In this document: piece after piece, positions 55,638 through 57,587 of the stretch
Position numbering within the stretch: the stretch's first letter is position 1
Layout of the letters: each line of letters opens with the position of its first letter
Assembly: GCA_009015555.1 (NCBI GenBank)
Contig: GCA_009015555.1_3613.1
Strand: one strand, 5' to 3'
DNA length: 64,000 bases
Source of the DNA: a phage
Notes under the pieces: model-generated
Told to the model about the DNA's origin: nothing
What the model saw: only the letters and a program-made list of their open reading frames with translations
Databases searched by the model: none
Position numbers and translations under genes: made by a program

Positions 55638-55714
55638 GCGCCTTTGGTCCAATTGGTAGAGGCACTACATTCAAAATGTAGGGGTTCCCAGTTCGAATCT
55701 GGGAAGGCGCACCA
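55638..55714 (+). tRNA. tRNA with Leu anticodon CAA but short (5-nt) variable arm; identity uncertain
   Basis: Acceptor GCGCCTT/AAGGCGC, anticodon stem CTACA/TGTAG, loop TTCAAAA, T-arm CCCAG-TTCGAAT-CTGGG, A73, CCA. Confidence 0.55.
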
Positions 55715-55730
55715 AAATTTATGTAACCTA

Positions 55731-55759
55731 TTGACATAGTGTAATTATACTGCTAATAT
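55731..55759 (+). promoter_or_regulatory. sigma70-like promoter (TTGACA-17-TAATAT)
   Basis: Consensus -35, good -10, upstream of ORF 55786. Confidence 0.5.
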
Positions 55760-55785
55760 GGATACACTAATTCAATGGGGGCATT

Positions 55786-56160
55786 ATGAGCAAGGCTGCG
55801 ATTGTAACTCGTAAGCGTGGTCGCCCAAGCAAAGAAGAGAGCACAGCAATCGCCCTTGAAAAGGCAATGCTTGATCTCCGAGGCGAATTGGCCCGTCTGA
55901 CGCCGAAGGCCATTCATACTCTCGAAAACCTGCTCACAACAGGCACAGAGAAAGTGAAGGAAACCACGGCGAAGTATATCCTTGAGCAGGCGAAAGAGGT
56001 TAACAACCTCTATACTGAAGAGGATAACGAAGACGACGCAGCAGGCGGCACAACATCTGCCTCTTCTGAAACTCACGCTGGTTCTTCTGACGAGATGAAA
56101 AATGCCATCCCGTTGACAACCCAGATTCGTGAGTATAAAGCAGTAGGCGAAGATGATTAA
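55786..56160 (+). CDS. small basic/acidic protein with AT-hook-like RKRGRPSK motif
   Basis: Track ORF; own promoter and terminator inside tRNA cluster. Confidence 0.55.
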   Translation: MSKAAIVTRKRGRPSKEESTAIALEKAMLDLRGELARLTPKAIHTLENLLTTGTEKVKETTAKYILEQAKEVNNLYTEEDNEDDAAGGTTSASSETHAGSSDEMKNAIPLTTQIREYKAVGEDD

Positions 56161-56163
56161 CTG

Positions 56164-56190
56164 GAAGGCTCCCGAAGGAGCCTTTATTAG
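56164..56190 (+). terminator. rho-independent terminator
   Basis: AGGCTCC-CGAA-GGAGCCT then TTTATT. Confidence 0.5.
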
Positions 56191-56325
56191 AAGTTCTCTT
56201 TTGACGGGCACTTGTTAACGACCCGCAGAATGACGACGGTGTACAACGGCGTTTGATGGCGAGGAAGGTCTATAGGGATCAGCGCAGATCCTTGGATGTC
56301 AGGTGAGCCGTACAAAAGAGAATTT

Positions 56326-56413
56326 GGGGAGTTATTTCCGTAGAGGTAGCGGTGCAGACTGTAAATCTGTTGTCATTGCGACTCGGGTGGTTCGACTCCA
56401 TCACTCCCCACCA
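56326..56413 (+). tRNA. tRNA-Tyr (anticodon GTA), long variable arm
   Basis: Loop CTGTAAA, variable arm GTCATTGCGACTC, T-loop GGTTCGACTCC, CCA. Confidence 0.8.
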
Positions 56414-56419
56414 AATTAT

Positions 56420-56514
56420 AGTAGGATGGCTGAGTGGCTTAAAGCAGCATCTTGGAAAGGTGTCGGATCAGGTAACCCCTGGTCCCGGGAGTTCAAATCT
56501 CCCTCCTACTGCCA
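56420..56514 (+). tRNA. tRNA-Ser (anticodon GGA), type II
   Basis: Acceptor AGTAGGA/TCCTACT, D-loop GAGTGGCTTAA, loop TTGGAAA, long variable arm, CCA. Confidence 0.75.
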
Positions 56515-56518
56515 GACC

Positions 56519-56595
56519 GGATCGTTAGCTCAATTGGTTAGAGCAAGGGACTTTTAATCCCGAGGTTCGGGGTTCGAGTCCCTGACGGTCCACCA
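56519..56595 (+). tRNA. tRNA-Lys (anticodon TTT)
   Basis: Acceptor GGATCGT/ACGGTCC, loop CTTTTAA, T-loop GGTTCGAGTCC, CCA. Confidence 0.8.
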
Positions 56596-56760
56596 GAAAG
56601 GAAGAGGGTCCAAGCTGGTAATGCGAGAGGCGAGTCCTCAGACCAAAGCCCAGATGGAGGCCACCCTAAAGTCGTCCAACCGAAGGTCCCTGATTGAGTA
56701 ATACTTCCCCGCTTGTCGGGTACAGTTCTCAGTCACACCGGAAGGGGCGCACCCTATAAT

Positions 56761-56836
56761 TGACGGTGAGCATATAAGGACATGCGGGGGCCTGTTAAGT
56801 CCAGGATAGCTGGTTCGAATCCAGTACCGTCAGCCA
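56761..56836 (+). tRNA. tRNA-Asn (anticodon GTT)
   Basis: Acceptor TGACGGT/ACCGTCA, loop CTGTTAA, T-loop GGTTCGAATCC, CCA. Confidence 0.75.
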
Positions 56837-56945
56837 ATTTGGTTCCGACAAGGTGACGGCGCACCCCGGAGCGACGCTGAAAGATGCAGGCCGACGAACA
56901 CATACGTGTACTTAATCAATAGTCATTGCGATGGCTATTCGTTAA

Positions 56946-57023
56946 GTCCTGGTAGACAAACTGGATAAAGTCACCACCCTTTCAAGGTGGGGTTTGAGGG
57001 TTCGATCCCCTCTCAGGACGCCA
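56946..57023 (+). tRNA. tRNA-Glu (anticodon TTC)
   Basis: Anticodon stem CCACC/GGTGG, loop CTTTCAA, T-loop GGTTCGATCCC, CCA. Confidence 0.75.
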
Positions 57024-57117
57024 ATCTTTTAGGTCGGTAGATTAATGAGCAAAGGCCGCTCGCTGGATTCCAACCCCAGTTCAAGGCGTTCGATTCGTCA
57101 CCTTCCTGCCAAATTCA

Positions 57118-57193
57118 GGTCCTATGGTATTAGCGGTAAACATACTCGCCTGTCACGCGAGAGTCACGGGTTCGAATCCCGTTAGGACCGCCA
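57118..57193 (+). tRNA. tRNA-Asp (anticodon GTC)
   Basis: Acceptor GGTCCTA/TAGGACC, loop CTGTCAC, T-loop GGTTCGAATCC, CCA. Confidence 0.8.
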
Positions 57194-57200
57194 CTTCAAA

Positions 57201-57275
57201 TGGGGATTAGCTCAGGGGTAGAGCGCACAACTGATAATTGTGAGGTCGGTGGTTCGAAACCACCATCCCCAACCA
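57201..57275 (+). tRNA. tRNA-Ile (anticodon GAT)
   Basis: Acceptor TGGGGAT/ATCCCCA, loop CTGATAA, T-loop GGTTCGAAACC, CCA. Confidence 0.8.
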
Positions 57276-57345
57276 AACAGCCCCTCCCGGGATTGGACCG
57301 GGTTAACGGCAATCGCACACTGAGGCGTCTTCCGGGGGAACAATA

Positions 57346-57422
57346 CGGTGTATAGCGCAGCCTGGTAGCGCATCTGGTTTGGGACCAGAGGGTCGCTGGT
57401 TCGAGTCCAGCTACACCGACCA
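57346..57422 (+). tRNA. tRNA-Pro (anticodon TGG)
   Basis: Acceptor CGGTGTA/TACACCG, stem TCTGG/CCAGA, loop TTTGGGA, T-loop GGTTCGAGTCC, CCA. Confidence 0.8.
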
Positions 57423-57428
57423 AATTAT

Positions 57429-57503
57429 TGCGAGGTAGTTCAGCGGTAGAACAGGGGTTTCATACGCCTCATGTCGGCAGTTCGATTCTGCCCTTCGCAA
57501 CCA
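57429..57503 (+). tRNA. tRNA-Met (anticodon CAT; initiator/elongator/Ile-lysidine not resolved)
   Basis: Acceptor TGCGAGG/CTTCGCA, loop TTCATAC, T-loop AGTTCGATTCT, CCA. Confidence 0.7.
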
Positions 57504-57509
57504 AATCAT

Positions 57510-57587
57510 GCTCCAGTAGCCCAATTGGTAGAGGCACTTGATTTAGGATCATGTCAGCGATGAGTTCGAATCTCTCCTGGAGTACCA
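57510..57587 (+). tRNA. tRNA-like gene with Leu anticodon TAG, short variable arm and weak T-stem; identity uncertain
   Basis: Acceptor GCTCCAG/CTGGAGT, D-arm CCAATTGGTAGAGG shared with 55638 tRNA, loop TTTAGGA, A73, CCA. Confidence 0.45.

Follow-up and report, generated by a model that had tools for sequence, protein, structure and literature searches.

Two type I leucine tRNA genes in a phage tRNA cluster

The window analyzed here, a 64,000-nucleotide stretch of phage DNA, contains a tRNA-Leu(CAA) gene (tRNA1) and a tRNA-Leu(TAG) gene (tRNA2) which, judging from their sequences, probably encode working leucine tRNAs of the type I (short-armed) kind, charged by the host's own leucyl-tRNA synthetase (LeuRS). 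Both genes belong to a known but rare kind of tRNA that is little noticed in phages, and our literature search turned up no account of short-armed tRNA-Leu from phages. In textbooks and most publications, bacterial tRNA-Leu is regarded as long-armed. In bacteria, short-armed tRNA-Leu has been presented as a Streptomyces peculiarity with a specially adapted LeuRS (PMC6614811). The short leucine body is broader than this, being common in phages and present in enterobacterial and Vibrio phage groups whose hosts (as tested for E. coli) have no such tRNA.

The window belongs to a Certrevirus (Cronobacter/Enterobacter phage) about 98% identical to Cronobacter phage CR3, in which both genes have already been annotated as tRNA-Leu; tRNA1 has the same annotation in CR3 and CR8, at 98.7% identity. 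When ARAGORN was applied to the whole window, both genes were called within a cluster of 18 tRNAs (Table 1). Because tRNA1 scored 56.5 bits (E 1.6e-10) and tRNA2 44.1 bits (E 4.2e-7) against Rfam RF00005, whose gathering score for tRNA membership is 29 bits, neither gene is a chance match. The leucine anticodons proposed in the preliminary description, in the loops TTCAAAA and TTTAGGA, agree with the ARAGORN calls and Rfam scores, and a misplaced anticodon or wrong isotype was ruled out by the same register in ARAGORN, Rfam and a 65-sequence alignment. The short variable arms, the common D-arm (3-bp stem, 11-nt loop CAATTGGTAGA) and the discriminator A73 reported there were also seen in both genes. 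At 5 nt each, the variable regions lack the long arm (>10 nt) of type II tRNA-Leu, and both genes have the features of type I tRNA-Leu, namely a Leu anticodon (NAG or YAA), a 5-nt variable loop and the shared body, defined as U8-A14, a 3-bp D-stem, the D-loop CAAYTGGYAGA and the T-loop TTCGAAT. Determinants of modification are intact (A36A37A38 in the CAA tRNA, G36G37 in the TAG tRNA). Long arms are retained elsewhere in this cluster, by three tRNA-Ser (87-95 nt) and by the tRNA-Tyr; no long-armed tRNA-Leu was found in it.

Table 1. Positions of the two tRNA-Leu genes, their structural elements and the surrounding cluster in the window
Feature	Position	Strand	Basis
tRNA-Leu(CAA) (tRNA1), type I body, 74 nt plus encoded CCA	55638..55714	+	ARAGORN, Rfam 56.5 bits
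tRNA1 D-arm, 3-bp stem GTC/GGC, 11-nt loop CAATTGGTAGA	55647..55663	+	sequence and ARAGORN structure
tRNA1 anticodon CAA (reads UUG), loop TTCAAAA	55672..55674	+	ARAGORN
tRNA1 variable region GGGTT, 5 nt, last base U48 (partner of A15)	55682..55686	+	
tRNA1 discriminator A73, followed by encoded CCA	55711..55711	+	sequence
tRNA-Leu(TAG) (tRNA2), type I body, 75 nt plus encoded CCA, G1.U72 wobble	57510..57587	+	ARAGORN, Rfam 44.1 bits
tRNA2 D-arm, stem GCC/GGC, loop CAATTGGTAGA as in tRNA1	57519..57535	+	sequence and ARAGORN structure
tRNA2 anticodon arm, U28.U42 mismatch (57538/57552)	57538..57552	+	
tRNA2 anticodon TAG, loop TTTAGGA with G37	57544..57546	+	
tRNA2 variable region TCAGC, 5 nt (6 counting the next G), position 48 = C	57554..57558	+	
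tRNA2 T-arm GATGAG/TTCGAAT/CTCTC, A insertion at 57560 and U.U mismatch	57559..57576	+	MAFFT
tRNA2 discriminator A73, followed by encoded CCA	57584..57584	+	sequence
Phage tRNA cluster, 18 ARAGORN calls plus tRNA-Tyr at 56326-56413	55478..59024	+	

Distribution and conservation of the short leucine body

IMG/VR viral contigs and bacterial genomes were scanned with a pattern that specified only the D-arm and T-loop and left the anticodon free. The short Leu body was detected in at least 120 IMG/VR contigs, and hundreds of phages in GenBank, with hosts among Proteobacteria and Actinobacteria, have it too. Among viral tRNAs with this D-arm, 130 of 131 carry a Leu anticodon, of six kinds (TAG, CAA, TAA, CAG, GAG and AAG), as do 124 of 125 such tRNAs in bacterial genomes. 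This tie of the body to leucine anticodons supports the working-leucine-tRNA reading. Two independent random samples of phage tRNA-Leu contained 24 short ones out of 89, or about a quarter. A short tRNA-Leu is kept in over 100 records of enterobacterial phages, spread over four lineages, which also supports that reading; members occur in the Felix O1-like, T5-like and rV5-like groups and in KVP40-like Vibrio phages.

Actinomycetota carry the body too, as a single-copy gene on the chromosome, and there the pattern retrieves short tRNA-Leu (CAA/UAA) of Amycolatopsis, Nocardia, Mycolicibacterium, Corynebacterium and others. In the scan, UAA and CAA are nearly the only anticodons of these chromosomal singletons, whereas all six Leu anticodons occur in phages and tRNA arrays. 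The earlier statement that bacterial tRNA-Leu is type II is thus not universally valid. In a comparison with 5,426 E. coli genomes, neither gene had a match beyond a marginal one to tRNA-Thr, which rules out a host-derived copy and leaves the host LeuRS with no chromosomal type I substrate.

Conservation within the family is strong. Among 203 unique short tRNA-Leu sequences, A73 is kept in 194, U48 in 186, U8 in 196 and the 5-nt variable loop in 170, and A14, A15, G18 and G19 are invariant in a MAFFT alignment with 64 family members. Paired bases fill 98.4% of the cloverleaf cells, compensatory changes were found at 16 of 20 pairs, and the covariation score of 0.92 compares with 0.21 in shuffles and does not exceed 0.17 with slid partners, which together argue that the cloverleaf is under selection. 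That both genes are real tRNAs of a selected cloverleaf with intact modification determinants further favors working leucine tRNAs.

The preliminary description also took the two genes for paralogs. This holds at the family level only: they are not recent copies, being 68% identical outside the loops, and each is nearer to tRNAs of other phages, with 73% identity to the TAA tRNAs of My1, Sealy and 4MG and 82% to the Leu(CAG) of mycobacteriophage ET08. The identities, ranging from 58 to 82%, do not separate an origin of the short body in long-armed phage tRNA-Leu of the T4 type from one in Actinobacteria.

Probable charging by the host leucyl-tRNA synthetase

A tblastn search with E. coli LeuS retrieved LeuRS homologs in 37 phage records, none of them from a Certrevirus, enterophage, vibriophage or mycobacteriophage, which rules out a phage-encoded enzyme here. 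Since the phage has no LeuRS of its own, charging must fall to that of the host. According to a review of tRNA identity, the E. coli-type LeuRS reads neither the anticodon nor the long arm, which is dispensable in the E. coli tRNA-Leu identity set, and recognizes A73 and the shape of the D/T elbow (A15-U48, G18G19 and the A after U20). tRNA1 has all of these determinants, its D-loop CAATTGGTAGA holding A14, A15, G18, G19 and the A after U20, and tRNA2 has all but U48. The conserved A73, U48, U8 and 5-nt loop of the family match this identity set, which supports leucine charging.

The body presented to the enzyme would thus combine a type-II-style D-arm (3-bp stem, loop CAAYUGGYAGA), a 5-nt variable loop ending in U48, the T-loop UUCGAAU and A73, and the enterobacterial LeuRS would charge it via A73 and the D/T elbow. 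Once transcribed, processed and leucylated, the CAA tRNA would be expected to read UUG and the UAG tRNA to read CUA and CUG on the ribosome, and during infection both may supplement or replace the single-copy minor isoacceptors of the host.

The preliminary description offered three readings. Of these, the one with leucine isoacceptors that need no long arm for charging has the strongest support, given the 130 of 131 Leu anticodons, the kept LeuRS determinants and the leucylation of a Streptomyces member. The type I tRNA-Leu(CAA) of S. coelicolor could be charged with leucine in vitro, and its gene resisted deletion (Fan et al., Nucleic Acids Res 2019, PMC6614811), and charging of this chromosomal member supports the same function for the phage pair. 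In addition, phage Gaia has been reported to need its own tRNA-Leu(CAA) for lysogeny when that of the host is disrupted, and in a study of Sf14 the tRNAscan-SE isotype models gave Leu the top score for all three phage tRNA-Leu; both reports favor working leucine tRNAs. The Sf14 TAG tRNA matches tRNA2 over positions 8-78.

Several observations weaken the reading as working leucine tRNAs. The S. coelicolor tRNA, the only bacterial type I tRNA-Leu tested, was charged by its own LeuRS and not by E. coli LeuRS (PMC6614811); type I tRNA-Leu is absent from the E. coli genomes; CUA is seldom used in the window; and tRNA2 has a folding z-score of 0.01 and C48. In the same work, the leucine-specific domain of S. 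coelicolor LeuRS was needed for type I tRNA-Leu to be charged, that of E. coli LeuRS was said to favor tRNAs with a large variable loop, and the 5-nt variable loop was reported as required for charging (PMC6614811). The Streptomyces tRNA-Leu has C48 where tRNA1 and 92% of the family carry U48, a difference that may explain the failure of the E. coli enzyme. A type I phage tRNA-Leu with U48 offers a handle on recognition by E. coli LeuRS. For short phage tRNA-Leu, our literature search yielded no data on expression or charging.

Comparison with other leucine tRNAs

Like the phage pair, E. coli leuX and leuW have A73, C2-G71 and a 3-bp D-stem. The D-loop CAATTGGTAGA matches that of leuW (AAATTGGTAGA) at 10 of 11 bases, tRNA1 has exactly the anticodon loop of leuX, and the loop of tRNA2 differs from that of leuW (TTTAGGT) at position 38 only, its ortholog in F2M1E being the same as leuW. 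The G1.U72 pair of tRNA2 is also present in E. coli tRNA-Leu(UAA). Outside the loops, however, the phage pair is only 58-68% identical to leuX/leuW, with a variable region of 5 nt versus 13 nt and the T-loop TTCGAAT instead of TTCGAGT or TTCAAGT. Such a structural contrast between the tRNAs of phage and host could have a bearing on tRNA-targeting defence, and calls for caution in tRNA annotation and codon-usage analyses that assume phage tRNAs to be host copies.

The tRNA-Leu of T4 (87 nt, UAA) and T5 (85 nt, UAG) are likewise phage-encoded and located in tRNA clusters, but keep the long arm (variable region of 13-15 nt). Of 18 positions, 16 are the same in the D-arms of T4 (GTCAAATTGGTAAAGGCA) and tRNA1 (GTCCAATTGGTAGAGGCA). 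The T5 tRNA-Leu is recorded to have become an amber suppressor on anticodon replacement; our literature search found no such test of any short phage tRNA-Leu. It is worth noting that the T5-like phages My1 and Sealy have one long and one short tRNA-Leu each.

Among the closest known relatives in type is the S. coelicolor type I tRNA-Leu, which shares the Leu anticodon, 5-nt variable loop, U8-A14, 3-bp D-stem and A73 with the phage pair. Chromosomal genes of Amycolatopsis, Mycolicibacterium, Corynebacterium and other Actinomycetota have the same D-arm (GCCCAAYTGGCAGAGGC) and the T-loop TTCGAAT, and are 71-74% identical to tRNA2 outside the loops. These genes are chromosomal with a co-evolved LeuRS, whereas the phage genes face an enterobacterial host (E. 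coli tested) without such a tRNA. Animal mitochondrial tRNA-Leu also has a short variable loop and A73 and A14 as determinants, and is charged without a long arm, but it depends on a dedicated mitochondrial LeuRS and has a degenerate, floppy structure, whereas the phage pair has a canonical elbow (G18G19, TTCGAAT).

Structural weakness of the UAG tRNA

The weak T-stem of tRNA2 pointed out earlier was traced by the family alignment to a 1-nt insertion (A 57560) in its 5' strand together with a U.U mismatch. Position 48 is C in this phage and T in CR3, CR8, CR9 and F2M1E. From its C48, T-stem insertion and stem mismatch, the UAG copy in this phage is probably a poorer LeuRS substrate. It is possible, though on balance unlikely, that this tRNA is in decay or barely functional next to a working CAA tRNA, a situation compatible with the main explanation. 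The U28.U42 mismatch, the T-stem defects and C48 against the U48 of the family all point in this direction, as do a minimum free energy no better than that of shuffled sequence (z = 0.01), an Rfam score among the lowest in the cluster, the rarity of CUA in the window, and the lack of a Pectobacterium phage at 90% identity or more among the matches listed. However, tRNA2 is 95-99% identical in CR3, CR8, CR9 and F2M1E, whereas the surrounding segment is about 80% identical; this conservation over five Certrevirus genomes argues against decay and for a working leucine tRNA. Moreover, the T-stem insertion is common to all five orthologs and is thus old and tolerated, the U28-A42 pair is restored in F2M1E, and no defect is seen in the acceptor stem, D-arm, T-loop, A73 or CCA.

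Codon supply offers no explanation for the UAG tRNA, because CUA is the rarest Leu codon in the window, accounting for only 2.5% of Leu codons in 72 ORFs; compensation for CUA is thus unsupported. UUG makes up an unremarkable 17% of Leu codons in these ORFs.

Alternative explanations

Loss of the long arm might be an adaptation rather than an accident of descent, which we consider unlikely. It would keep leucine decoding going when type II tRNAs are destroyed or sequestered by host or phage, or would provide a "portable" adaptor from Actinobacteria to Enterobacteria that is proof against SerRS. If so, enterobacterial LeuRS would charge type I tRNA-Leu efficiently given U48, against the view that only Streptomyces-type enzymes do. 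Evasion of Schlafen nucleases specific for type II tRNAs is unsupported by two papers on bacterial Schlafens, enzymes that cut numerous tRNAs in either the anticodon arm or the T-loop and do not favor long arms, and our literature search found no bacterial nuclease that depends on the long arm. Phage tRNAs have been proposed to evade anticodon nucleases by changes in the anticodon loop (van den Berg et al., eLife 2023). As here, those are phage-encoded isoacceptors structurally unlike the host versions, but the phage pair differs in the variable arm instead, and the tRNA1 loop, being that of leuX (E. coli standing proxy for Cronobacter), is not an anticodon-loop variant; nor does the tRNA2 loop, with its single difference from leuW, qualify as one.

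Somewhat less probable still is that the tRNAs are made but stay uncharged in enterobacteria, as decoys or sponges for a tRNA nuclease or other tRNA-binding factor, or as relics of transfer from actinophages. The failure of E. coli LeuRS on the Streptomyces tRNA, the lack of this tRNA type in enterobacterial (E. coli) genomes and the little use of CUA in the window would agree with this, and the 83% identity of tRNA2 to a mycobacteriophage tRNA-Leu fits horizontal spread. A decoy, however, needs neither the joint retention of A73, A15-U48 and a Leu anticodon in 92-99% of members nor an encoded CCA and intact modification determinants, and both Vibrio phages and four separate lineages of enterobacterial phages still carry the type. 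The more specific suggestion of decoys for anticodon nucleases found nothing in its support: with a loop identical to that of the host, tRNA1 would gain no protection from an anticodon-loop nuclease, though it could serve as bait.

An altered identity, in which a non-leucine amino acid would recode UUG and CUA in phage proteins, is highly improbable. In its favor, the type I body is that of most non-Leu tRNAs, and the Sf14 Leu(TAG) relative scores nearly as high for Ile2 (65.7) and Lys (63.4) as for Leu (67.4). By the established rules of identity, though, synthetases apart from LeuRS, SerRS and AlaRS generally rely in part on the anticodon, and CAA and UAG fit none of the anticodon-reading enzymes. 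A stop-codon suppressor (CUA, UUA or UCA anticodon) was ruled out, as CAA and UAG read UUG and CUA/CUG. With G3-C70 in tRNA1 and U3-A70 in tRNA2, there is no G3.U70 for AlaRS; SerRS uses a long arm and G73, against the short arm and A73 found here, and C2-G71 is an anti-SerRS element. Finally, all six Leu anticodons and essentially no others occur on this body, and the Leu model scores highest for all three Sf14 tRNAs.

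Two short-armed leucine tRNA genes in a Certrevirus tRNA cluster

The source phage belongs to the genus Certrevirus (Vequintavirinae), and its tRNA region shares 98.4% identity with that of Cronobacter phage CR3; the value is 97.4% for CR8 and 94% for the Enterobacter phages vB_ExiM_F1M1E to F5M1E. ARAGORN predicted 18 tRNA genes in the window, all on the plus strand (55478-59024). Long arms are retained by all three tRNA-Ser of this cluster (87-95 nt) and by its tRNA-Tyr, and no long-armed tRNA-Leu was found among its tRNAs. At the tRNA-Tyr(GTA) locus, Rfam gave only a sub-threshold tRNA-Sec match (32.9 bits, 56327-56408).

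Features of the tRNA cluster discussed in the text
Feature	Position	Strand	Evidence and annotation
tRNA-Leu(caa), the CAA tRNA	55638-55714	+	ARAGORN; Rfam tRNA model 56.5 bits (threshold 29); annotated tRNA-Leu in CR3 and CR8
ORF, 124 aa, between tRNA-Leu(CAA) and tRNA-Tyr	55786-56160	+	
tRNA-Tyr(GTA), long-armed	56326-56413	+	Annotated tRNA-Tyr in CR3 and CR8; missed by ARAGORN
tRNA-Leu(tag), the TAG tRNA	57510-57587	+	ARAGORN; Rfam tRNA model 44.1 bits (threshold 29); annotated tRNA-Leu in CR3 and CR8

ARAGORN, Rfam and the sequence layout all agree with the preliminary description of two tRNAs with leucine anticodons, a short variable arm, a common D-loop and A73. Both genes are type I (short-armed) tRNA-Leu, a known but rare kind. 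The CAA tRNA forms a clean cloverleaf with a variable region of 5 nt (GCGCCTT / TG / GTC-CAATTGGTAGA-GGC / A / CTACA-TTCAAAA-TGTAG / GGGTT / CCCAG-TTCGAAT-CTGGG / AAGGCGC / A / CCA), and its folding relative to shuffled sequence gave z = -2.95. Of the 11 positions of its D-loop, 10 agree with E. coli leuW; it has the same anticodon loop as leuX, and the MiaA/TrmL determinants (A36A37A38) are present. At the corresponding site, phage CR9 (about 556-636 of locus L376) carries a short tRNA-Leu(CAA)-like sequence that is divergent and has no annotation; its D-loop is 14 nt long (CAACAAAAGGTAGA) and its T-loop is TTCGACC, which looks like a replacement by another family member.

The TAG tRNA has the same D-loop, a wobble pair G1.U72, the anticodon loop TTTAGGA with the TrmD determinant (G36G37), the variable region TCAGC and the T-arm GATGAG-TTCGAAT-CTCTC. 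The weak T-stem noticed earlier is accounted for by a U.U mismatch and a one-nucleotide insertion (A57560) relative to the family, the insertion being common to CR3, CR8, CR9 and F2M1E. The anticodon stem contains the mismatch U28.U42, a pair that is intact in the F2M1E ortholog, and C48 occurs in the source phage only, among the Certrevirus orthologs compared. With z = 0.01, this tRNA is no better folded than shuffled sequences. Its gene shows 95-99% identity across CR3, CR8, CR9 and F2M1E, against about 80% for the surrounding segment, and is therefore maintained; the tRNA itself is weakened relative to its family and may be charged poorly.

A large family of short tRNA-Leu in phages

Using the 77-nt and 78-nt genes as queries, blastn retrieved 74 and 245 phage records, respectively, with matches of about 70-76 nt that were nearly all annotated as tRNA-Leu. 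The records comprised Certrevirus, Seunavirus (4MG), T5-like phages (My1, DU_PP_V, Klebsiella Sealy), Felix O1-like and Moogle-like phages of Escherichia, Salmonella, Shigella and Citrobacter, KVP40-like Vibrio phages, and phages of Mycobacterium (Bxz1 group), Gordonia, Rhodococcus and Streptomyces. Both genes thus belong to a large family. In example phages, the short tRNA-Leu measured 73-76 nt before CCA by ARAGORN, with three each in KVP40, Felix-like O157 typing phage 11, mycobacteriophage ET08 and Gordonia phage Sixama. In contrast, T4 and T5 encode tRNA-Leu with the ordinary long arm (87 and 85 nt, respectively), and the T5-like phages My1 and Sealy each combine a long tRNA-Leu with a short one. 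The two genes had been described as paralogs. They do share a family; however, they are only 68% identical outside the loops, and each groups with tRNAs of other phages: the CAA tRNA with the TAA tRNAs of My1, Sealy and 4MG (73%), and the TAG tRNA with ET08 Leu(CAG) (82%) and Felix-like Leu(TAG) (77%). The pair therefore did not arise by a recent duplication.

We also scanned IMG/VR with the pattern CCAAYTGGYAGAGGC-N25-31-GTTCGAATC, which fixes the D-arm, the short spacing and the T-loop and leaves the anticodon free; at least 120 contigs contained it. Among the matches listed, 130 of 131 tRNAs with the pattern D-arm had a leucine anticodon (TAG 51, CAA 36, TAA 30, CAG 6, GAG 4, AAG 3), a test that is not circular because the pattern is silent on the anticodon. 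In the listed loci, 196 of 223 tRNA-Leu were short, and all 80 tRNA-Ser were at least 81 nt long. The short body is tied to leucine. The 203 unique short tRNA-Leu among the matches listed mostly have A73 (194), U8 (196), U48 (186) and a 5-nt variable loop (170). In a 65-sequence alignment, A14, A15, G18, G19 and the T-loop were invariant or nearly so. The cloverleaf was paired in 98.4% of cells, with compensatory changes in 16 of 20 pairs and a covariation score of 0.92 (controls: shuffles 0.21, slid partners no higher than 0.17).

Frequency was estimated from two IMG/VR samples, drawn independently with generic D-arms of tRNAs other than tRNA-Leu as seeds. Short forms made up 16/50 and 8/39 of tRNA-Leu, and 1/34 and 1/26 of tRNA-Ser; therefore, about one phage tRNA-Leu in four is short-armed. 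Part of the short tRNA-Leu in these samples have an E. coli-like D-arm (GGAAYTGGTATAC), which implies more than one lineage and suggests that the long arm was lost more than once. This second kind, with the T-loop TTCGAGT, was seen in phage 4MG (L007, 7863-7939) and at loci L354, L331, L269, L380 and L485. Short-armed tRNA-Tyr exist in phages too: one of 71 nt was found in Rhodococcus phage Dorin (L013, 3620-3690), and 3/15 and 2/11 tRNA-Tyr in the two samples were 73-74 nt long, while tRNA-Ser was nearly always long.

Type I tRNA-Leu in bacteria

The same pattern detected at least 120 loci in GTDB genomes, and 124 of 125 pattern-matching tRNAs were tRNA-Leu among the matches listed. These matches fell into two classes. 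The first is the sole tRNA in 8 kb, almost only UAA or CAA, chromosomal and mostly from Actinomycetota (Amycolatopsis, Nocardia, Mycolicibacterium, Corynebacterium, Gordonia, Actinomyces and others); the second lies in tRNA arrays, mostly with CAG, GAG or TAG. Dense arrays with such tRNA-Leu were observed, among other genome loci, in Nostoc sp. NIES-4103 (L248, 26 tRNAs in 8 kb) and a Planctomycetaceae MAG (L180, 34 tRNAs in 8 kb). The earlier statement that bacterial tRNA-Leu is type II is consequently not universal, as Actinomycetota have type I genes. Neither gene had a match in 5,426 complete E. coli genomes; enterobacteria, represented by this set, appear to have no type I tRNA-Leu of their own.

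The kind was already known, since Fan et al. 2019 (PMC6614811) described a "type I" tRNA-Leu(CAA) with the 5-nt loop ACAGC in Streptomyces coelicolor. The single ScoLeuRS charges it about half as efficiently as the type II tRNA-Leu(UAA), and charging depends on U8-A14 and the 5-nt loop length; deletion attempts on its gene failed, and the charging ability was mapped to the leucine-specific domain of Streptomyces LeuRS. Full-text literature searches found no paper on short-armed tRNA-Leu in phages, and a 2025 study of phage Sf14 tRNAs does not mention the variable arm. The literature searched covers neither how frequent type I tRNA-Leu is among phages nor its presence in phages whose hosts lack such a tRNA and have a LeuRS reported unable to charge it.

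Leucine identity and charging

With E. coli LeuS as the tblastn query, no LeuRS homolog was found among the records of Certrevirus, enterophages, vibriophages and mycobacteriophages; the phage depends on the host LeuRS. The synthetases that ignore the anticodon are LeuRS, SerRS and AlaRS. G3.U70 is absent from both tRNAs, and the CAA tRNA has C2-G71, an anti-SerRS element. As neither tRNA carries Ser or Ala marks, leucine is the sole plausible identity, and the altered identity proposed earlier is very unlikely. The identity set of E. coli LeuRS consists of A73, the A15-U48 Levitt pair, G18G19, A20a and D/T-loop contacts, and excludes the anticodon; sequence and folding of the long arm are uncorrelated with activity, and arm-less variants are still active (review PMC9976931). 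The CAA tRNA has all elements of this set. On the other side, E. coli LeuRS did not charge the S. coelicolor type I tRNA-Leu(CAA) (PMC6614811). The substrate in this sole direct test has C48, which may explain the failure; U48, the E. coli determinant, is present in 92% of phage family members and, for the bacterial singletons, in 74 of 77 among the matches listed. That the E. coli genomes contain no such tRNA also weighs against a simple leucine-decoding role.

Of the readings put forward in the preliminary description, leucine isoacceptors charged without the long arm remain the best, and ordinary leucine decoding is most likely. The CAA tRNA would read UUG and the TAG tRNA CUA/CUG, both supplementing single-copy minor isoacceptors of the host. 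We regard this reading as reasonably probable, and hold our confidence there because we infer charging in an enterobacterium. In the 72 ORFs of the window, UUG makes up 17% of leucine codons and CUA, the rarest, 2.5%, so codon supply does not account for the UAG tRNA, a further point against the simple picture. Arm loss as evasion of a host defence remains speculation, since no bacterial nuclease dependent on the long arm was found in the literature searched; papers on bacterial Schlafen proteins describe broad tRNA cleavage. A decoy role for the two tRNAs is conceivable but unsupported.

Surroundings of the cluster

No Rfam family matched at E <= 1 in the inter-tRNA spacers at 56596-56760, 57024-57117, 57276-57345 and 57668-57740 (70-165 nt); in T5, stable tRNA-like RNAs occupy comparable positions. 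In its homologous tRNA region, the Pectobacterium relative phiTE (NC_020201) carries an annotated 'pseudo-ToxI', a mimic of an antitoxin RNA, and the window has no ToxI-like Rfam match. Gene order in the cluster is rearranged with respect to CR3 (window 56837-56945 and 57979-58785): an HNH endonuclease gene between tRNA-Asn and tRNA-Glu in CR3 is absent from the window, and tRNA-Ser(TGA) precedes a 230-aa ORF (58093-58785) in the window and follows its counterpart in CR3. The 124-aa ORF is kept as a hypothetical protein in CR3, CR8, CR9 and F2M1E.
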